Shown piece after piece: positions 30,012 to 43,037 of a stretch of DNA of 43,037 bases. Positions within the stretch are counted from its first letter, which is position 1, and each line of letters opens with the position of its first letter. The stretch is from IMG/VR virus record IMGVR_UViG_3300045988_172905, positions 1 to 43,037 of that record; one strand, 5' to 3'. Below the pieces are notes generated by a model that saw only the letters and a list, made by a program, of their open reading frames with translations, made no database searches and had not been told where the DNA came from. A program made the translations under genes and the position numbers. The stretch is from a virus.

Positions 30012-33000
30012 ATGCCTGATATATCTACAAAAGCAACAGTCGGCATTGAGCTGAACACACAACCTGTGGGGCGCAAGATTGCCGAACTGGAAACGAAACT
30101 CGACAAACTGAACGAAAAAAAACGTCAGTTCGAGGCGGCTGGAGACCAGAAAGGTCTTGTGAAAATCCAAAAGGAGATTAACAAGTTCTCTCGCCAACTT
30201 GACAACGCTCGCACCGCTTCGGAGCGGTGCAAGGCTGCTTTGGCGAAGCTCAACGAGGCATCGCCAAAGGAACTGCGGCACACCCTCAAGCAACTGAAAG
30301 CAGACTTGGACCACATGGAACGTGGTTCATCGGCGTGGAAGGCTCATGTCGAAGCCATCAAGCGTGTGAAAGCCGAAATCAAGAATGTCGATGCCGAGCT
30401 TCGGGAACATGAGGGTCTGCTATCACGACTTAACAGAAAGGTTAATGAGTGGGGCATGAGCATCGCCAGTGCTGCCGCTGCTTTCACCGGCTTGGTGTTC
30501 ACTGCACGCCAAGCGGTGCAAGCCTATGCCGACATGGAGGCCGAGATGGCAAATGTTCGCAAGTTCACCGGCATGACAGAAGAGGATGTCGAAAAACTAA
30601 ACGAGTCGTTCAAGAAGATGGACACTCGCACCAGCCGTGAGGACTTGAACAAACTGGCGCAAGAGGCTGGGCGTTTGGGCTTGCAGAGCCAGGAGGATGT
30701 GCTGGGCTTCGTGACAGCCGCCAACCAAATCAATGTGGCGCTCGATGACTTGGGCGAGGGTGCCACGCTGACGCTCTCGAAACTGACCGACATCTTCGGC
30801 GATAAAGACCGCCTCGGTGTGGAGCAGTCACTGCTCGCCGTGGGCTCGGTCATCAATGAGCTGTCGCAGAACTGTACTGCTTCGGCTCCATACCTCGCAC
30901 AATTCGCTCAGCGTCTCGCCGGTGTGGGCAAGCAGGCGAACATGACAATCCCTGAGATAATGGGCTTCGCTGCCGTGCTCGACTCGCAAGGCCAAGCGGT
31001 GGAGATGAGTGCCACGGCTCTCTCGCAACTTATTATGAAGCTGTTCCAGGATCCTGCCAAAATCGCCAAGGCTACCGGCATGGACCTGCAGGCTTTCAAC
31101 AAGGTGCTGAAAGAGGACACCAACGAGGCTCTGTTGATGCTCCTTCAGCGACTGAATGAGCTTGGCGACATCAGCGCGTTGGCTCCTGTTTTCGATTCGA
31201 TGGGCACCGATGGCGCACGAGCCTCGCAGGTTATTGCCGCTCTCGCTGGCAATGTGGAAATGGTGAAGAAACAGCAGCAAGCCGCCAATGTCGCTTTCAA
31301 ACAGGGTACTTCGGTCACGAAAGAGTACAACGTGCAGAACAACACCGTGCAAGCCGGGCTTGACAAAGCCAAGAAGGGCTTCCACGAGATGGCGGTGGAG
31401 TTGGGGCAGAAACTGGCTCCGGCCATGAAGTACGCCATCACAGGCACAAGTGCTATGATGCATGTGCTGTCGGGGGTCATCTCGTTCATCAGCGACTACG
31501 CTGGTACTATTATCTCTACCGCAATCGCCATCGGTGGTTATACTGTGGCTGTAAACGCAGCCGTTATTGCTGACCAACTGAAAGTGTTCTGGAATAACGT
31601 GCTCATTGGTAGTTTCAAGAAACTATGGGCGGTTATTGCCGCTAATCCCTATGGTGCTCTTGCAGCTGCTATAGGCGTGGTTATCGGTTTGGTCATAGAC
31701 CATAATAGAGGCCTTACTGAGGCTAAAGCCGCTGAGGAGGCTCTTAATGGTGTCCGTGAGCAAGCCCGTAAAAAAATTGTTGACGAACAGACTGAACTTG
31801 AAATCCTCATTGCGGCTGCCAATGACGCCACTCAATCATATAAGAATCAGAAAGCGGCTGTTGACAAACTGAACAAAACCATACCGGGCTTCAACGGTAA
31901 AATTGATGCAACTACCCGCGCCTTCAGCTATTCAAAACGGGCTCTTGATGAATATATCAATAGCCTTATTCGTCTCTATGAAGTGGAGGGTGCCAAGGAA
32001 AAATTCAAGGAACTTGGTAAGGAGCGTGCTGGCTATGTGATTGAGAAAAAACAGTTTGAGAAAGAAATCGCTGATGAGAAGCAACGCCAACGGGAAGAAT
32101 ATTCTCGAATGGCTGGTAATCCTAATTATTCCACATCACAAGGCGGCAGCATGCCAGCTGTTGCCAGTATCTCGATGAGCAATGATGCAACCTTGCGCGG
32201 CCTTGAGGCACGTCTTGATCGCATCAACAACAAACTAAAATACACCGATGCTTCTATGCAAGCCCTCAAAGATGAGTATGGCAAAGACTGGTATGCTCAA
32301 GACCAAGGCAAACCGATAACTCCTACAAGCGATATCCATCCTACTGGCGACCCTGGTGGCGGCCGTGGCAACTCTGACTTCACTCCTTCTGATGAAAAGG
32401 CTGAGCGTAAGGCTGAGGCAGATCGCAAGAAAAAAGAGCGTGAGGCACGTGCAGCGCAGCGCAAAAAAGAGCAAGACGCTGCTAAAGTTAAACGCCTTGC
32501 GGATCGTGTGACTAAACAAGAATACGAGCAAGCTCTTAAAGACACTGTTGAAGACCGCGCAAAGGCAGAAACAGAAGCTTTGCAACTTTACAAAGCCGGT
32601 GAGCTCGGCTACTATGAATATCTCGACCGCATGGCTAATATCGAGGAGGAGTTTTGGAACTCTCGACTCGATACCTATGAGGCTTTTGGCAAGGCTGAAA
32701 GTGATGACTATGCCAAAGATGCTAAAAAACTCGAGGAGGCTAAGACAAAGCATGAGCAGCAGATGACTCAAATCCAAATCACCGCTGCCCAACAACGCCG
32801 TGACCAAGCAAAGCTTGATGCTGAAATGGAGTTTTACAACCCCGATAACAAAGAGGCTTTTCACAACCAACAATGGCTCAACGACCGTCGCGCTAAACTT
32901 GAACTCGACTATCTGCAAGAGGTTATGAAAATCCATAAAGAGGGTTCTAAAGAATGGCTCGACGCAGAAAAGGCCCTTGACAAAGCTGCCAAAGAGGAAG

Positions 33001-34313
33001 AATTGCGCCAACGCAAGCAGATGGAGCAAAACATGTCTGCTTGGCTATACATCTATTCGCAGCAAGGCGCAAAGACTCGGATGGATGCGGAACTGCGCGT
33101 TGCAAAGCAACTCTACGACCAAAAACTGCTCAAAGATGAGGAATATCAGGAAGCTCGTGCTGCAATCGAGAAAAAGTATCGTGACGAGGTGAACTCTAAG
33201 ACCGGCACAAAAGCCAAGAATCAAGATTTCGACGATGCCAAAGGTACCTACGAGCAGCAGATGAAAGCCCTCGAGGATGCACGCAAGCAAGGGCTTATCT
33301 CACAAGAGGACTATGAGTCGCGCAAGTTCCAAATCACGCAGAACTACCACAACAAGGTCGTGGAACTCATCAAAGGTCAAGGCTCGGAGTGGTCAACCAT
33401 GGTCACCACGCTCGTCGAGACTTGGAAGGCTGGCTTCGAGAATCTCGGCAGCACCTTGCCTGAGAAACTCAAAAGCATCGCAGATATGGCTTCGGCGGCA
33501 TTCGCTATAATGAACGAGGGCGTGAAGTCTTACACGGCCTATGCCAACGCCAGCCGTGACCTCGAACTTGCTAAAGTTGAAAAGAATTACAAAGCGCAGA
33601 TTGACGCTGCTGGCAACAATGACAAGAAGAGAAAACAACTTGAAGAACAGAAAGAGAAGGAGATCGCTAAGATTAAGACCAAGTATGATAAACGTGCTAT
33701 GGTCATCGAGATGGCGCAAGCCGTGGCATCGACAGCAATGGCTGCGATTAATGCTTATGCTAGCGCAGCGCAAGTGCCGATGATTGGTTACCTTCTTGCC
33801 CCGATTGCTGCCAGTATGGCTCTCGCGGCTGGTGCCTTGCAAATCGCCACCATCAAGAAGTCGCACCAAGCGCAGCAGATGGGCTACTACGAGGGTGGTT
33901 TCACGAGCCGTGACACCAACAACCGCCGTGAGGCTGGCGTGGTGCATGCCAATGAGTTTGTGGCGAACCATAACGCTGTGTCGAATCCTCAGTTGCTTCC
34001 TGTGCTTCGTCTGATAGACCAAGCGCAGCGCAACAACACAGTGGGTTCGCTCACTCGAGAAGATGTGAGCCGTGCCATCGGGCAAGGTGCTATACTCGGC
34101 GACATGACTGCCAGCCAGCAGCGCACCGCCGAACAGCACGACACGTCGATGGTGATGGTGGCGGCCTCCATGGAGAGGCAGACCGATGCCATCAACGAGC
34201 TTAACGCCCGCCTTGCCGACGGCATTGAGTCGTTCATGGTGATGGACGGTGAGCGTGGCTTCGACCGCTCATGGCAGCACTACCAGCGCATGAAGAACAA
34301 TCCAAAGCGATAG
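30012..34313 (+). CDS. Tail tape measure protein
   Basis: 1433 aa with a TP901-type TMP core (NVRKFTGMTEEDVEKL...LAQEAGRLGLQSQEDVLGFV...LSKLTDIFG), central hydrophobic segments and long Lys/Glu/Ala coiled coils. Confidence 0.9.
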   Translation: MPDISTKATVGIELNTQPVGRKIAELETKLDKLNEKKRQFEAAGDQKGLVKIQKEINKFSRQLDNARTASERCKAALAKLNEASPKELRHTLKQLKADLDHMERGSSAWKAHVEAIKRVKAEIKNVDAELREHEGLLSRLNRKVNEWGMSIASAAAAFTGLVFTARQAVQAYADMEAEMANVRKFTGMTEEDVEKLNESFKKMDTRTSREDLNKLAQEAGRLGLQSQEDVLGFVTAANQINVALDDLGEGATLTLSKLTDIFGDKDRLGVEQSLLAVGSVINELSQNCTASAPYLAQFAQRLAGVGKQANMTIPEIMGFAAVLDSQGQAVEMSATALSQLIMKLFQDPAKIAKATGMDLQAFNKVLKEDTNEALLMLLQRLNELGDISALAPVFDSMGTDGARASQVIAALAGNVEMVKKQQQAANVAFKQGTSVTKEYNVQNNTVQAGLDKAKKGFHEMAVELGQKLAPAMKYAITGTSAMMHVLSGVISFISDYAGTIISTAIAIGGYTVAVNAAVIADQLKVFWNNVLIGSFKKLWAVIAANPYGALAAAIGVVIGLVIDHNRGLTEAKAAEEALNGVREQARKKIVDEQTELEILIAAANDATQSYKNQKAAVDKLNKTIPGFNGKIDATTRAFSYSKRALDEYINSLIRLYEVEGAKEKFKELGKERAGYVIEKKQFEKEIADEKQRQREEYSRMAGNPNYSTSQGGSMPAVASISMSNDATLRGLEARLDRINNKLKYTDASMQALKDEYGKDWYAQDQGKPITPTSDIHPTGDPGGGRGNSDFTPSDEKAERKAEADRKKKEREARAAQRKKEQDAAKVKRLADRVTKQEYEQALKDTVEDRAKAETEALQLYKAGELGYYEYLDRMANIEEEFWNSRLDTYEAFGKAESDDYAKDAKKLEEAKTKHEQQMTQIQITAAQQRRDQAKLDAEMEFYNPDNKEAFHNQQWLNDRRAKLELDYLQEVMKIHKEGSKEWLDAEKALDKAAKEEELRQRKQMEQNMSAWLYIYSQQGAKTRMDAELRVAKQLYDQKLLKDEEYQEARAAIEKKYRDEVNSKTGTKAKNQDFDDAKGTYEQQMKALEDARKQGLISQEDYESRKFQITQNYHNKVVELIKGQGSEWSTMVTTLVETWKAGFENLGSTLPEKLKSIADMASAAFAIMNEGVKSYTAYANASRDLELAKVEKNYKAQIDAAGNNDKKRKQLEEQKEKEIAKIKTKYDKRAMVIEMAQAVASTAMAAINAYASAAQVPMIGYLLAPIAASMALAAGALQIATIKKSHQAQQMGYYEGGFTSRDTNNRREAGVVHANEFVANHNAVSNPQLLPVLRLIDQAQRNNTVGSLTREDVSRAIGQGAILGDMTASQQRTAEQHDTSMVMVAASMERQTDAINELNARLADGIESFMVMDGERGFDRSWQHYQRMKNNPKR

Positions 34314-34368
34314 TTAGGCAATAGTTAAGCAATCCAATATTTTAATTTCATATTTATATAGTAACTTG

Positions 34369-34407
34369 AAGGTGGCGGTGCCAGTGATGGTATCGCCACC
34401 TTTGTTT
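34369..34407 (+). terminator. Intrinsic terminator of the tape measure gene
   Basis: AAGGTGGCG 34369-34377 pairs with CGCCACCTT 34394-34402, followed by TGTTT. Confidence 0.65.
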
Positions 34408-34960
34408 CGCAAAAGCCTCTCGGTGGCTGGTGGGGCATTGTTCGGCTACGGTGGCGGTGAGTGCCGCATACCACCAGCCCATTTCCTCGTTTCAACCATC
34501 GTGCCTCTTACCCTTGTCACATCGTCATAATCATCTTGCAACCGTCAAATGGCGGTTGAACGGACTTGCATCTTAGGACTTGCTCCCCTCTCGCGCTCAC
34601 CCCTTCGACCTTGGCTTGTGGGCTCCCATCAGCGTCACCACCTCTTGGCGATGGCTCGGCACGGTTCTTTCCACTTGCAGTCATCCAAAGGGTTTCGGGT
34701 CGGGCATTCGTCGGTGACGGCACCCGCTGGGCTTGCCGGTTGTCGCCAGAATCGGCACACTGCGTGCCCCTGCTCCTTGCCGCCTGGAGGGGATGGTGCT
34801 GCGGGCTGCCAGATGTGGCATTGTTCAGCGTCGTGTGTGAGTGTGCCATAACAAATTTTGAGAGTAATTTTTTCTTTTACACCGCAAAGTTACGGCTTGG
34901 CTCGATATGCAAGGTCAGGCGCTGTTTCAGTCGAAATCTCCAGCCCTGCGGGTAGTATTT
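34405..34960. ncRNA. GC-rich ~550-bp non-coding island (candidate large structured RNA; strand unresolved, minus favoured by the promoter box)
   Basis: About 61% GC over 34561-34860 by hand count. ORFs are open in three frames but all are protein-unlike. Helices include 34425-33/34471-79, 34539-44/34553-58, 34584-90/34787-93, 34633-39/34713-19, 34754-58/34764-68 and 34807-11/34816-20. Confidence 0.35.
34885..34892 (-). promoter_or_regulatory. -7 box TAACTTTG on the minus strand, pointing into the GC-rich island
   Basis: The plus strand reads CAAAGTTA, so the reverse complement is an exact TAnnTTTG match. An A-rich stretch follows on the minus strand. Confidence 0.45.
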
Positions 34961-35050
34961 AGCCTTGGAAAACCTTGCTGGCAATCTCACTCTTTGCTCG
35001 TCACGAAGCAGTGTAAATAAAAAATTATTCACTCTTAAAATTTCTATGTT

Positions 35051-35623
35051 ATGGTACACATTTCAAACACTTCCGATTTCGAGAACAGTAACAACATCTT
35101 CATGGCTGCTCGCTACACGTACATCCCTACCACCGTTAAGGCTGATGGCAAGGCTTGGGGCATCCGCAAAAAAGTGTGGAAATTCAAAGACGGCGACACC
35201 GCCATCTCATCAGAGGTCGCCCGGTGGGTTAGCACAACACTCGACGAGTCTATGCCTGACCTCGAAAACTGTACCTTCGTCTGCATACCTGCAAGCAGCG
35301 AGGAGAGAACACAGATGCGATACGAACAATTCGCTCAAGAGGTGTGCAAGGCAACGCAGATGGCTAACGCCTACAAGCATATTAAGGTCGAGGGTGAACG
35401 CCTCGCTATCCACGAGCACAAGGTGTGCAAGTCTATCTCTAAGGTGCAGGTCTTGAAGTTCGACCGCCGTTTCTTCAACGGACGCAAGGTGATTATCTTC
35501 GACGATGTGATTACCAAGGGCAAGAGTTTCGCCACCATGGTTGAGTATCTCGAGGAGATGGGCGCAGTGGTGGTGGGCGGCATCTTCCTCGCCGCTACCG
35601 CTTTCCAGCACAACAATGCCTAA
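35051..35623 (+). CDS. ComF-like phosphoribosyltransferase-fold protein
   Basis: PRPP-binding-type motif RKVIIFDDVITKGKSFATMVEYLEEMGA, upstream FVCIPASSEERTQMRYEQFA as in ComF/GntX-type PRTases, and no N-terminal zinc finger. Confidence 0.75.
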   Translation: MVHISNTSDFENSNNIFMAARYTYIPTTVKADGKAWGIRKKVWKFKDGDTAISSEVARWVSTTLDESMPDLENCTFVCIPASSEERTQMRYEQFAQEVCKATQMANAYKHIKVEGERLAIHEHKVCKSISKVQVLKFDRRFFNGRKVIIFDDVITKGKSFATMVEYLEEMGAVVVGGIFLAATAFQHNNA

Positions 35624-35655: not shown

Positions 35656-35718
35656 ATGCTCAATGTTAATAAATTGTTGAAATCTAAAATATCTTGTTGG
35701 TAAATGAAATATATTGCT

Positions 35719-35726
35719 TACCTTTG
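35719..35726 (+). promoter_or_regulatory. -7 promoter box TACCTTTG with no ORF directly downstream
   Basis: Exact match, and the flank tgcttacctttgcag is shared with the box at 39943. A weak hairpin plus TTTTT lies at about 35763-35799. Confidence 0.45.
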
Positions 35727-35832
35727 CAGCGTACCAAAGTACATAGATCTAACCATCAGGAGGGCTGTCTGGCTGTGAAGCTTGGCAGCCTAAATTTTTG
35801 GCACAGAATTTGCTTACTCTAAAAAATAGAGT

Positions 35833-36411: not shown

Positions 36412-36480
36412 AAATTATGTTTAAAAGCATAAAGTGCAAATTTTACAAGATTATAAGATACAGCGTAAGATATTTTTATT

Positions 36481-36488
36481 TACCTTTG
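36481..36488 (+). promoter_or_regulatory. -7 promoter box TACCTTTG
   Basis: Exact match 21 nt upstream of ATG 36509. Confidence 0.55.
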
Positions 36489-36492
36489 CATG

Positions 36493-36504
36493 GCGAAATT
36501 TCGC
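36493..36504. promoter_or_regulatory. Perfect 12-bp palindrome GCGAAATTTCGC between the promoter box and the methyltransferase start
   Basis: Read directly from the sequence. It sits 5 nt after the -7 box and 5 nt before the ATG. Confidence 0.45.
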
Positions 36505-36508
36505 AATT

Positions 36509-38854
36509 ATGAAACACCGATATGATATGGAAACTAAAATCACAAGCAATGTTGGATGGGCCGCAAGAACAGGTCTCTTACCAATACATCTCGTTCCTTC
36601 TGAGGAAGTGAGTCGTTTTATTATGCTTGATGGCGGTGTTTATGACTTCTGTTTGGATTTTTCTCGCCAAAAGGAAAATTTTGAGTTTTACAAATCTCTA
36701 TCTTGGTCGGCAAATACTAAGAATTATATTTGTGTTAACCATGATAAAATTATTGTATATAATTGGTTGAAGCCAAAAGGTGACGTTTTACCTGCCACAA
36801 CGGTAGAGCACAAATTTGACCAATTTATCAACATCTTAAATGCTAGTAGTGTCCGCACATCTTCTGATGTAATGCCGTTTGTGATAAATCTTTTCAGAAG
36901 TTTGCGAAATGAAACCATTGAGAGGAAAGAGCCTATTGAAGCCCTCAATCTCCTCTATAGGCTCTTGATATCATTAGAAGAAGACAATTTTAGCGAAGAC
37001 GTTTGCCGTAAGTGGAATATACGTGCCGACATTGCCATTCCTTCAACTTTTGATAATATAGTTGATCTTATGAGAAAGGGTTCACTTGGGATCAAACCTA
37101 ATCTGGATCTTATACTAAGACATGGTTCGGGAATGATATTTCAAGAAGCTCACAGAATAGCGCAAAACTTCTCCAAGCAACTCTCTATATTCGGTGGATA
37201 TTCATCAAATATTGATTTCAAAAGTAAGAATTTGTACTCGAGCACCCACTATACCCCTCAATATCTGGCACGGTCTATTGTTGAAAATTGCATACAGAGA
37301 GTGGATCTCTCAAAACAGACGTTACGAATCTTGGATCCTGCATGTGGCTCGGGGTCATTCCTCATCGAAGCGTTAAAGCAGTTGAAAGAGAAGAATTATT
37401 GCGGCCAAGTTATAATAGAAGGGCTGGATAGTTCTGTCTGTGCGGTAAGTACAACACAGTTTCTTTTAAACTACGAGAAGCGAGCTGTTTGGTCTGAGGA
37501 GAATTTGGAAGTAAAAATCAAGCAAGTCTCTGATTCGTTGCAAGAAGACTGGGATGGTGGATATGATATAATTTTAATGAATCCGCCATTTGTCTCTATG
37601 GAGCTACTCAAGGATCCAGCAGAAAAGGATGCGGTACGACAAGTGCTTGCAGAATTGTCTATGTCTCACCGCCCCAACCAAGCTGCTGCTTTCTTGTATA
37701 AGGCTATAAAGGCGTTGGCTCCTGATGGATGTCTAGGTGCCGTATTGCCATATTCTATCTTGCTCTTTGACCAATATGAACGACTTCGGGAGGCTATACA
37801 TTCGATGTCATCGCTTCAAGTTGTGGCTCACCTGGGTAACTTTGTGTTTGAGAATGCCCTTACAGACGTGAGCTTCATGATCTTCACTAAAAAAGCTGAT
37901 CAAGAATCTCCTAAAGTAATCTGGTGTAGGAATAAGGAAAATGTAGCTTGTGCAGTCACAAAAGCTTGGCGTAAGATGTCATATAATGGAGAAATATCTG
38001 TTGATGACTATGATTACAACATCTACACTCCCGGGCAATTTCCGCTTGTTCGTCATTCGTGGAAAGTTATTCAGCAAAGGGATGAGGAATTCATGCGTAA
38101 CCTCAAAGCATATATGGAACAAGGTCTTCTAAAACCATTATCGTCAGTGCTTGATGTTAAGCAAGGCTTGCTTAGAGGAAACAAATATGCCTTTATTTTA
38201 AATAAAGACGAATACGAAAACATACCCCAAAACGAAAGAATGTATTTTCGCCCCCTGGCTTCTTCAGATACCATTAAGAATGGGCATGTTGTCAGGGTAA
38301 AATATATTTGGTATCCCTACGATGAAGACGGTTTGATGATTAAGTCAGAGGAAGAGTTGAAATCACTTGATTTTTCTTACGGTTGGTTAAGTCAATGGAG
38401 AGCAACTTTGGAAAACCGAAAAGGTGTTAGCCCATGGTGGTCTCTTACTCGCCCACGAAAATTTCAGTACTCCCCAAATTCACATCTTATTTCCAAACGA
38501 TTTGGTAATTCTTCATCCTTTGCCATCACTGCTGGGGATGAAGTGGTCGAAGAAGGTAACGCACTGTTGCTGAAATCTCGTTTGGTCAAAGATGACATGT
38601 ATTTCTATTTGTCTGTTTTATCTAGTGGCGTTTTTGATAGACTGCTGTCAATCTATGCCAAGCCACTGCTTTCAGGCTATGATTTAGGTGGAGTGCATAT
38701 TAAAGATATTCCAGTGCCAGATGTGAGGATGATTTGCGGTTCGACACTTTATCAAAAATTGGTTGAAACAGGCCAAATATATCATGATGGCGACACTGCC
38801 ATATTGGTTGTTATTGACGATATTGTCAAACATCTTTATCCTCAGGTATGGTAA
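36509..38854 (+). CDS. Eco57I/TaqI-C-type N6-adenine DNA methyltransferase, possibly a Type IIG restriction-modification enzyme
   Basis: Motif X HYTPQYLARSIVE, motif I ILDPACGSGSFLIEA, motif IV ILMNPPFVS, and a C-terminal specificity-type region with WWSLTRPR. A ~290-aa N-terminal domain is of unknown function. Confidence 0.85.
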   Translation: MKHRYDMETKITSNVGWAARTGLLPIHLVPSEEVSRFIMLDGGVYDFCLDFSRQKENFEFYKSLSWSANTKNYICVNHDKIIVYNWLKPKGDVLPATTVEHKFDQFINILNASSVRTSSDVMPFVINLFRSLRNETIERKEPIEALNLLYRLLISLEEDNFSEDVCRKWNIRADIAIPSTFDNIVDLMRKGSLGIKPNLDLILRHGSGMIFQEAHRIAQNFSKQLSIFGGYSSNIDFKSKNLYSSTHYTPQYLARSIVENCIQRVDLSKQTLRILDPACGSGSFLIEALKQLKEKNYCGQVIIEGLDSSVCAVSTTQFLLNYEKRAVWSEENLEVKIKQVSDSLQEDWDGGYDIILMNPPFVSMELLKDPAEKDAVRQVLAELSMSHRPNQAAAFLYKAIKALAPDGCLGAVLPYSILLFDQYERLREAIHSMSSLQVVAHLGNFVFENALTDVSFMIFTKKADQESPKVIWCRNKENVACAVTKAWRKMSYNGEISVDDYDYNIYTPGQFPLVRHSWKVIQQRDEEFMRNLKAYMEQGLLKPLSSVLDVKQGLLRGNKYAFILNKDEYENIPQNERMYFRPLASSDTIKNGHVVRVKYIWYPYDEDGLMIKSEEELKSLDFSYGWLSQWRATLENRKGVSPWWSLTRPRKFQYSPNSHLISKRFGNSSSFAITAGDEVVEEGNALLLKSRLVKDDMYFYLSVLSSGVFDRLLSIYAKPLLSGYDLGGVHIKDIPVPDVRMICGSTLYQKLVETGQIYHDGDTAILVVIDDIVKHLYPQVW

Positions 38855-39851: not shown

Positions 39852-39942
39852 GCCATCAATTCGTGATGGTTTCTGAAACATGTTGCACAACACTAAATGC
39901 AAAATATTATTAAAATTCTTTGGTTGATTGATTGATAGTGCT

Positions 39943-39950
39943 TACCTTTG
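39943..39950 (+). promoter_or_regulatory. -7 promoter box TACCTTTG
   Basis: Exact match 73 nt upstream of ATG 40023. Confidence 0.55.
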
Positions 39951-40022
39951 CAGACTGAAACGAGGATCCTGACAAGGTGAACCTCCGATAACAACATCAA
40001 TAATTTTGTTAAAGAACTGATT

Positions 40023-41471: not shown

Positions 41472-41503
41472 CTCACCCCATCAAAATATGCTCCACCCCA
41501 TCA

Positions 41504-41538
41504 ATCCGCATAAATCCGAAAAAATGCGGATATTTTTT
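41504..41538 (+). terminator. Intrinsic terminator (cassette-junction repeat, copy 1)
   Basis: ATCCGCAT 41504-41511 pairs with ATGCGGAT 41524-41531, followed by ATTTTTT. Confidence 0.7.
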
Positions 41539-42148: not shown

Positions 42149-42164
42149 TATGTTCTACAACATT

Positions 42165-42195
42165 AATCCGAAAAAAATTCTGCAGATTTTTTTTT
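42165..42195 (+). terminator. Degenerate terminator (cassette-junction repeat, copy 2)
   Basis: Imperfect AATCCG / CTGCAGATT pairing followed by T9. Homologous by eye to copies 1 and 3. Confidence 0.4.
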
Positions 42196-42856: not shown

Positions 42857-43037
42857 CACGGCTCTTTCATTTAACTTTGGTGTTGTTTAGCAACTGCTTG
42901 AATAAGTAGCATTTACCCAAGTCTAATCTGTGGAATATATAAAAACAGTTTTGTTGGGTGTTATTGAGAGTTGCTTCTAACCGACTAATACTCATGGATA
43001 TTGAAAATTCAAAGCATTTTTAAATGAAAGAGCCGTG
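42857..43037. mobile_element. 181-bp MITE: 18-bp perfect terminal inverted repeats flanked by a 9-bp target-site duplication
   Basis: Left end CACGGCTCTTTCATTTAA at 42857-42874. Right end TTAAATGAAAGAGCCGTG at 43020-43037 (= 38-55). The flanking TCCACCCCA lies at 42848-42856 and 56-64. No ORF inside. Confidence 0.75.

Follow-up and report, generated by a model that had tools for sequence, protein, structure and literature searches.

This analysis concerns a GC-rich intergenic island (34405-34960) and the gene adjacent to it in the IMG/VR virus record IMGVR_UViG_3300045988_172905, which was analyzed over its full length of 43,037 nucleotides (nt) and is referred to here as the window. The island lies in a gap of 737 nt between the stop codon of the tape-measure gene (30012-34313, identified by its PHROGs match) and the start, at 35051, of a gene for a 190-aa protein with the fold of a phosphoribosyltransferase (PRTase). 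An earlier reading, made from the sequence alone (hereafter, the sequence-only reading), had measured the same gap and proposed the island as a large structured RNA. On the alignments described below, the island is instead an inverted copy, riddled with indels, of the ShosT-like PRTase gene beside it (35051-35623), from which it is separated by a hairpin core that carries a promoter pointing the other way.

The two ends of the window share an exact 55-nt direct repeat (1-55 and 42983-43037), a sign that the phage contig is complete and either circular or terminally redundant. The window is that of a temperate tailed double-stranded-DNA phage, with genes for an integrase, a DnaG-type primase, a Clp protease and a tape-measure protein. 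A search for tRNA and tmRNA genes returned none, and blastn against GenBank phages gave no match in either the near or the distant mode. The G+C content of the central part of the island (34561-34860) was recounted as 183 of 300 nt (61%), the same value given by the sequence-only reading, and that of the whole interval was 56%, compared with 47% for the window, 52% for the tape-measure and PRTase genes, and 39% for everything downstream of the PRTase gene.

The island as an inverted copy of the adjacent gene

The identification of the island as a copy of its neighbour arose from an unexpected match of an island, on the reverse strand, to PRTase coding sequence. The comparison set comprised the window and 13 IMG/VR contigs carrying relatives of the PRTase gene (76-96% protein identity), distributed in five lineages, and an upstream island was present in the loci of all 13 relatives. 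When each island was compared with its own gene by blastn, matches on the opposite strand were obtained with E values of 1e-14 to 1e-21 (window and loci L001-L005), and when the 14 islands were reverse-complemented and aligned jointly with the 14 genes, both were collinear from the start codon (34849 mirrors 35051 in the window) to the stop. In the window the mirror measures 436 nt and the gene 573 nt, with about 83% identity in the aligned columns, and a global alignment of island and gene scored 106 against 2.3 ± 1.2 for shuffles. Relative to the gene, the mirror shows 39 deletions and 4 insertions; the deletions are mostly of 4-5 nt, spaced about 14 nt apart (13-15), and many of them fall at identical gene positions in different lineages. 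The pairing leaves 216 bases of the gene and 62 of the island unpaired, that is, the bulges are one-sided and lie on the gene strand.

The similarity does not extend to a protein. The best protein-level match between mirror and gene is of 22 aa, and a divergent PRTase paralogue on the minus strand was rejected because the tblastn match spans just that length. The three overlapping open reading frames (ORFs) listed by the sequence-only reading are present, and its view of the region as non-coding was borne out: indels of 1-2 nt interrupt the frames even where a relative is 92% identical, so that the island does not represent a protein-coding gene, and the minus-strand ORF that begins at the conserved ATG (34849) ranges from 13 to 111 aa across relatives. 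The coding potential of the three ORFs was therefore rejected, their frames being unconserved and without a Pfam match. A template repeat of a diversity-generating retroelement was also considered, and no direct repeat of the island was found anywhere else in the window.

The proposal of an autonomous large, ornate RNA of the GOLLD, ROOL or HEARO kind, contained within 34405-34960, fits a region that is non-coding, GC-rich, conserved in relatives and equipped with a promoter. Its recurring short motifs were all found where they had been placed, and six of the seven helices it listed are perfect, the exception being 34641-48/34685-92, which is imperfect. The richness in helices, by contrast, carries no signal, since perfect inverted 7-mers occur in the island at the rate expected by chance (8 vs. 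5.1 ± 3.1 in shuffles). Neither does the island show folding energy of its own in excess of dinucleotide shuffles: the plus strand alone reached -156 kcal/mol compared to -168 ± 7 kcal/mol (z +1.68), and the minus strand alone gave z +0.69. The covariance models of all Rfam families, including GOLLD, ROOL, HEARO/omega, raiA, retron msr-msd and group I/II introns, yielded no match at the gathering score in the whole window, and three trivial sub-threshold matches only in 34250-35100 at E values up to 10. The notion that the sequence is constrained by base pairing is correct, but the partner is outside the interval: complementarity to the adjoining gene explains the conservation of the island, which turned out to be an inverted, frameshifted copy of a known gene, an outcome that the sequence-only reading had itself set against an RNA gene. 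An autonomous RNA gene is thus the least supported of the readings weighed here, with a probability that we place close to nil. Whatever the function of the island, a GC-rich, stop-poor and helix-rich intergenic island may be the mirror of a neighbouring gene and not an RNA gene.

When the interval 34405-35623 was folded as a single strand, about 440 pairs were predicted, of which 332-356 joined island to gene, so that both together are predicted to form a hairpin of 1.2 kb, with a stability about 110-150 kcal/mol above that of controls. The minimum free energy was -563 kcal/mol with RNA parameters (-397 to -417 with the island shuffled) and -301 kcal/mol with DNA parameters (-183 to -192 with the island shuffled). 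The predicted helices are typically of 4-11 bp and run collinearly from 34434-42/35612-20 to 34846-53/35047-54, and onward through a mirrored copy of the leader of the gene (34854-59/35037-42, 34861-65/35031-35, 34866-73/35019-26 and 34876-85/35008-17), where lineage-specific changes are matched in both arms. Across the five lineages, 282-364 of 450 arm bases were paired to the gene and the folds were 40-150 kcal/mol more stable than controls, also in those lineages in which BLAST similarity between the arms has nearly disappeared.

The arms were also found to change together. The matrix of island-by-gene scores is block-diagonal by lineage, each island matching best the gene of its own lineage, and in 124 columns where the genes vary, islands matched their own lineage at 69.7, compared with 56.7 for other lineages. 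With one representative per lineage, self-assignment was the best of the 120 possible permutations (338 vs. at most 301 for derangements). This comparison indicates that the two arms co-evolve, a pattern unlike that of a freely decaying pseudogene, and suggests that the copy in the island is kept for its complementarity. A history without function could nevertheless be proposed, in which a toxic gene was duplicated head to head, perhaps through priming by a fold-back at the promoter hairpin, after which one of the two copies became inactive and gene conversion alone preserved the similarity of a functionless mirror. The island is clearly gene-derived and frameshifted everywhere, and conversion alone can produce concerted evolution of inverted repeats. 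Yet such a relic should not keep its arm at a nearly constant length in five lineages whose islands are only 66-77% identical to each other, nor preserve the energy of the fold-back where sequence similarity is almost lost; and the one-sided, regular deletions shared by lineages are of a kind that random decay should not make and that conversion should erase. We therefore consider a relic palindrome quite unlikely.

One segment of the arm departs from this pattern. The block CTTGCTCCCCTCTCGCGCTCACCCC, 25 nt long, is nearly invariant in the 14 loci and is the best conserved part of a mirror arm that otherwise diverges. It is predicted to pair with the gene in two helices (34593-34602/35392-35401 and 34577-34583/35427-35433), but this pairing is insufficient to account for its conservation, and the block may be a binding site.

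The core hairpin, its promoter and its distribution

Between the two arms lies a core (about 34883-35005) whose spread is far wider than that of the PRTase gene. Its apical hairpin is formed by a stem P1 (GCAAGGT/ACCTTGC), a stem P2 of variable sequence, a stem P3 in which AAAT/ATTT alternates with AATT/AATT, and an apical stem CCC/GGG. In a sample of 34 diverse sequences, 92.8% of the cells of its 22 pairs were paired, compared with 82.2% in shuffled data and 36-56% in slid registers, and changes on both sides of a pair were observed in 84 cells, when 26 were expected; none of 500 shuffles gave a value as high. One T:G pair of the minus strand is invariant, which on the plus strand would be an A:C mismatch. 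The central 231 nt of the window fold with z -5.8 on the minus strand and z -6.4 on the plus strand.

The sequence CAAAGTTA at 34885-34892 reads TAACTTTG on the minus strand, as the sequence-only reading had noticed in pointing to an antisense -7 box, and the family confirms that the box is a true and conserved promoter motif: of 152 unique matches to the core, 100 have an exact TAnnTTTG on the minus strand, 16-23 nt after the P1 half CCTTGC (the reverse complement of the left half of P1). The -33 consensus of Bacteroidota is TTTG. The combination is a complete Bacteroidota -33/-7 promoter with CCTTGC as a -33-like element. Within the duplex, the direction of this promoter is leftward, into the mirror arm and away from the PRTase gene. 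No recognisable promoter facing the gene was detected, nor any forward TAnnTTTG box from the terminator that precedes the island to the gene, and a substantial ORF downstream of the leftward promoter was found in none of 58 unique viral modules.

Outside P1, the arms of most modules still pair with each other. Smith-Waterman alignments compared with shuffles gave z values of about 5-10 (9-77 in the PRTase clade), while controls in direct orientation remained at background level. When the minus-strand folds of 104 modules were predicted, each position from +7 to +26, counted from the start of the -7 box, was paired with the opposite arm in 79-97% of the modules, with a single exception (50%), and the upstream half of the -7 box was paired in just 36-62%. 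The promoter elements thus appear to sit in P1 and in the outer stem, in such a way that the fold would redirect the promoter into the downstream gene.

A consensus promoter placed between inverted repeats and facing away from the only gene also recalls the phase-variable promoters common in Bacteroidales, and the core could be an inverton in which recombination of the arms flips the promoter between an OFF state, towards the mirror, and an ON state, towards the PRTase gene. However, all 14 PRTase loci have it in one orientation, and the absence of real ORFs downstream of the promoter in the viral modules is consistent with this. The repeats, which are long and imperfect, contain bulges, and most of their identity tracts are shorter than 15 bp; no recombinase gene travels with the cassette. 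Covariation from P2 to the apical stem is not something that an inverton requires. We regard this explanation as extremely unlikely.

By a pattern scan and nhmmer, the core was located in over 100 viral contigs; among the Bacteroidota, at least 120 species carry it, from the Bacteroidia, Flavobacteriia, Sphingobacteriia and Cytophagia, and it is also present in Bacteroidales plasmids. The genes to its right include those for ArdA, an ArdC-N-like protein, SSB, small membrane proteins and two clades of PRTases. In bacterial genomes the commonest neighbours were PcfK, PcfJ and a primase-like protein, all encoded on the strand of the cargo, and in a Parabacteroides plasmid the core adjoins ParA-family and DUF3408 genes. 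In 84 of 93 unique modules, the more stable fold was that of the minus strand, the template of the cargo; after correction for composition, in a subsample of 60 modules, this strand was favoured in 40 (p 2.5e-4).

Two tandem cores about 350 nt apart and in one orientation were observed in six loci (L144, L150, L184, L219, L236 and L238), from genomes that include Algoriphagus, Fontibacter and a Bacteroidales metagenome-assembled genome. In loci with two cores the orientation was always shared.

Cassette boundaries, cargo gene and surroundings

Terminator, island, spacer and PRTase gene together make up a self-contained imperfect palindrome of roughly 1.25 kb, from 34368 to about 35660, in which a terminator is followed by the mirror of the ORF and its leader, the hairpin core with its promoter, and the real leader and gene (Table 1). 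The upstream gene differs in loci L009-L013, and in more distant loci homology to the window ends no more than about 100 nt past the PRTase stop; these two observations show that the cassette moves as a unit. As noted for the inverton, it carries no recombinase gene along.

Table 1. Features of the cassette, with their positions in the window and the evidence for each.
Feature	Positions	Strand	Evidence or composition
Intrinsic terminator, left boundary of the cassette	34368..34410	+	16-bp hairpin 34368-34403, GUGA tetraloop, UUUGUUU
Mirror arm, condensed non-coding inverted copy of the PRTase ORF	34434..34849	no strand	blastn, alignment, predicted helices
Conserved block CTTGCTCCCCTCTCGCGCTCACCCC	34575..34603	no strand	alignments of 14 related loci
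Mirror of the PRTase 5' leader	34850..34884	no strand	pairs with 35008-35050 (predicted)
-7 box TAACTTTG	34885..34892	-	Bacteroidota consensus TAnnTTTG; core-family consensus TA(C/A)CTTTGC
Conserved apical hairpin, about 70 nt	34909..34978	-	covariation, 34 diverse sequences
Right arm: outer stem and A/U-rich PRTase leader	34979..35050	+	predicted pairing
Cargo gene, 190-aa PRTase-fold protein like ShosT	35051..35623	+	PADLOC profile

The terminator that the sequence-only reading placed after the tape-measure gene is real. It folds to -28.7 kcal/mol on the plus strand (z -5.9) and -18.4 kcal/mol on the minus strand, its G:U pairs existing on the plus strand only. The hairpin, with its CAGTGATG apex, is kept in each of the 14 PRTase loci, including those with a different upstream gene, and in many further modules a terminator on the plus strand likewise adjoins the left arm. 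On the minus strand no terminator was found; the boundary hairpin is weaker there and has no U tail. A scan for sigma-70 promoters and terminators, which is uninformative where the host is one of the Bacteroidota, missed this boundary terminator.

These boundaries bear on a further explanation, in which a single plus-strand transcript would run over island and gene as a bulged hairpin RNA, with the island acting as a cis-antisense leader that blocks translation of the toxin until it is processed. The plus-strand RNA folds as strongly as the minus strand (-563.5 kcal/mol, 332 cross pairs), the start codon and the leader are paired in the predicted fold, and bulges every ~14 bp would blunt RNase III. 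Against this, a strong plus-strand terminator stands right before the island and travels with the cassette, and from there to the gene no forward TAnnTTTG box is present; the minus strand is the better folder across the family, and its invariant T:G pair would be a mismatch in the plus-strand RNA. We rate this arrangement as highly unlikely.

The 190-aa cargo matched the PADLOC profiles of ShosT (E 1.6e-14), PsyrT (4e-5) and the retron III-A PRTase (0.011), and more weakly Pfam Pribosyltran (8.5e-4), NCBIfam ComF (3e-6) and PRTases in the PDB (E about 0.04). A retron context, of type III-A or otherwise, was rejected on account of the weak PRTase profile match and of the lack of a reverse transcriptase among the ORFs screened. 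The complete ShosTA defence system was likewise rejected: the ShosT-like match is present, but ShosA had no match in the two genes downstream of the PRTase gene, and the cassette ends after that gene.

The consensus promoter that faces the island should fire leftwards in duplex DNA, and a leftward non-coding RNA therefore probably exists, which could be the proper product of the locus. As a product, it would be an RNA of about 450-500 nt serving as an mRNA-like decoy or RNA antitoxin that binds or titrates the PRTase protein or a factor acting on its mRNA. The mirror keeps the leader and an ATG and so resembles the PRTase mRNA; the block at 34575-34603 is conserved beyond what pairing explains; and toxins of the ShosT type normally need an antitoxin, while the next two genes hold no ShosA. 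The same resemblance, however, gives the RNA the sense of the PRTase mRNA, which precludes an antisense action. The RNA shows no structure in excess by itself, and no terminator was found for it on the minus strand. Moreover, this account leaves unexplained the covariation of the core hairpin, which lies upstream of the promoter, and the fact that in the arm it is complementarity, and not sequence, that is conserved. We consider that product unlikely. A type I toxin-antitoxin pair with an antisense RNA was rejected, given that the only recognisable promoter yields an RNA of mRNA sense and that the plus strand of the island is behind a terminator and without a promoter.

Cassettes of related build were observed elsewhere. 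In L009 (3320-4194), and likewise in L011, a second cassette lies directly 3' of the PRTase cassette, with a terminator that has the CAGTGATG apex and a T run, a GC-rich, stop-poor left arm, a core (3773-3871 in L009) and a cargo of 79 aa, relatives of which also occur 3' of cores in bacterial genomes. Pfam and PHROGs returned no match for this second cargo, for the gene upstream of the cassette in L009 or for several proteins of the window. A second clade of PRTase-like cargoes, of 186 aa and with the motif WDFKDGK, is associated with the same core in L014, L024, L027, L030 and related viral loci. Its inverted repeat is of ~80 nt only, which makes the whole-gene mirror specific to the clade of the window.

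As regards the surroundings, the ordinary promoters of the phage have the same -7 motif in forward orientation (TTACCTTTGCAG at 35715-35729 and 39939-39953); at these two positions the motif TGCTTACCTTTGCAG recurs upstream of plus-strand genes, with the look of the duplex promoters that the phage ordinarily uses. A repeated terminator-like element, formed by TCCACCCCATCAATCCGC, an A/T loop, GCGGAT and a T run, was found at 56-96, 41492-41532 and 42154-42194. Shortly 3' of the cassette, 36434-38854 encodes a protein of 806 aa that is an N6-adenine methyltransferase or type IIG-like; anti-restriction islands typically contain genes of this class as well.

A single-strand promoter reading and comparison with known systems

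Taking anatomy, conservation and genomic context together, the cassette may be a single-strand-DNA promoter of a Bacteroidota type, comparable to the Frpo promoters of plasmids, a reading that we prefer to the others weighed here and regard as evenly balanced between right and wrong. From 5' to 3', the minus strand consists of the reverse complement of the cargo, the right arm, the apex, CCTTGC-N16-TAACTTTG and the left arm. When this strand, the template of the gene, becomes single-stranded, it would fold back on itself, so that the left arm would supply the non-template strand of the promoter and the contiguous right arm, leader and gene would supply the template. The promoter reconstituted in this way would point down the stem into the PRTase gene, and the fold-back-dependent transcript would start near 35010, with a leader of about 40 nt. 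Frpo has been described as acting in this manner. The mirror arm would extend the duplex across the whole gene as a surrogate non-template strand, and transcription of this quasi-duplex template would release the mRNA. The one-sided bulges of 4-5 nt, recurring every ~14 nt, would keep the tracts of identity too short for recombination or palindrome cleavage, and the upstream terminator would block read-through from the genes before it. As a result, production of an enzyme with potential toxicity or anti-defence activity would be confined to the time when the element is single-stranded, a state that in conjugative elements may correspond to entry into the recipient and in a phage perhaps to replication or nuclease resection, the last two being guesses.

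Several points weigh against the single-strand promoter. Its function is deduced from the geometry of the sequence and from context, and its main weakness is that we know of no obligatory single-stranded stage in tailed double-stranded-DNA phages. The folding strand was assigned relative to the cargo, also in the conjugative elements. The composition-corrected bias towards that strand is modest (1.75 kcal/mol); in the central 231 nt of the window the plus strand folds slightly better than the minus strand (-43.8 vs. -40.1 kcal/mol), and wobble-type mismatches in the long arms show no strand preference. In addition, the leftward RNA discussed above would be made from the duplex promoter. Finally, because most other modules have much shorter arms, the whole-gene arm must be dispensable for the basic function, and the role proposed for it is the step that rests on most speculation.

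In a wider form, the proposal would be that conjugative transposons, plasmids and tailed phages of the Bacteroidota share previously undescribed, phylum-wide promoters that work only in single-stranded DNA, built on a core hairpin of ~70 nt and -33/-7 elements, and that one phage clade has elaborated them into a 1.2-kb fold-back of a whole gene, in which a bulged mirror serves as the surrogate non-template strand and a ShosT-like enzyme is made only from single-stranded DNA. We put this forward tentatively and consider it somewhat more doubtful than probable. A literature search found no description of a Bacteroidota single-strand promoter, of this core, or of a promoter associated with PcfK/PcfJ, an absence that is no proof that these are undescribed.

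To our knowledge, single-strand promoters are known almost only from enterobacterial plasmids. If the proposal is true, they would extend to the dominant phylum of the gut microbiota, and a searchable signature (the core hairpin plus a reversed TAnnTTTG box) would flag candidate early establishment or anti-defence genes in conjugative transposons and phages. One would also have to ask at what point a tailed double-stranded-DNA phage has single-stranded DNA exposed for long enough to use such a promoter. The whole-gene mirror would represent a new way to silence a potentially toxic gene in the duplex while leaving it expressible on demand, and the short identity tracts and one-sided bulges would show how a long palindrome gains genetic stability.

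Among known systems, GOLLD, ROOL and HEARO resemble the island in being long, non-coding, GC-rich and conserved stretches in phages, but the island has neither a covariance-model match nor an autonomous structure, and its partner is a protein-coding gene. The cargo resembles the toxins of ShosTA and PsyrTA, as indicated by its PADLOC matches, and differs in that the cassette contains no DprA-like ShosA or other protein partner and that its toxicity is putative; control appears to be exerted by the geometry of DNA or RNA rather than by a protein antitoxin. At the minus-strand origin of f1/M13, host RNA polymerase recognises a promoter-like hairpin in single-stranded DNA, and the likeness is that of a single-stranded hairpin that mimics a duplex promoter for the host enzyme. 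In that case, however, a short primer for the complementary strand is made and not an mRNA, the phage is a single-stranded-DNA phage, and there is no sequence relation.

The closest comparison is with the single-strand DNA promoters that bear the names Frpo or ssi, reportedly described in F and IncI plasmids by Masai and Arai in 1997. In plasmids of enterobacteria, the leading-region genes ssb, ardA and psiB are driven by these promoters. The Frpo/ssi promoters of F and IncI plasmids have been surveyed (PMC11541004), together with the gene repertoire of plasmid leading regions, and the gene context of the core is the one published there for Frpo. Both are long imperfect hairpins of the strand that templates the downstream gene, with host promoter elements in the stem that are silent or misdirected in the duplex, and both lie directly upstream of genes that serve conjugative elements in establishment or anti-defence, ssb and ardA among them, with the genes on one strand. 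They differ in that the core uses the Bacteroidota -33/-7 elements with TAnnTTTG, while Frpo uses sigma-70 -35/-10 elements, so that what is claimed is an analogy and not sequence homology. The apical core of ~70 nt is conserved in sequence across the phylum, its promoter is intact in the duplex but reversed, and the element occurs also in tailed phages, where the fold-back of the clade of the window covers an entire gene of 573 nt. Set beside an Frpo-like promoter, this whole-gene mirror arm is an unusual elaboration.

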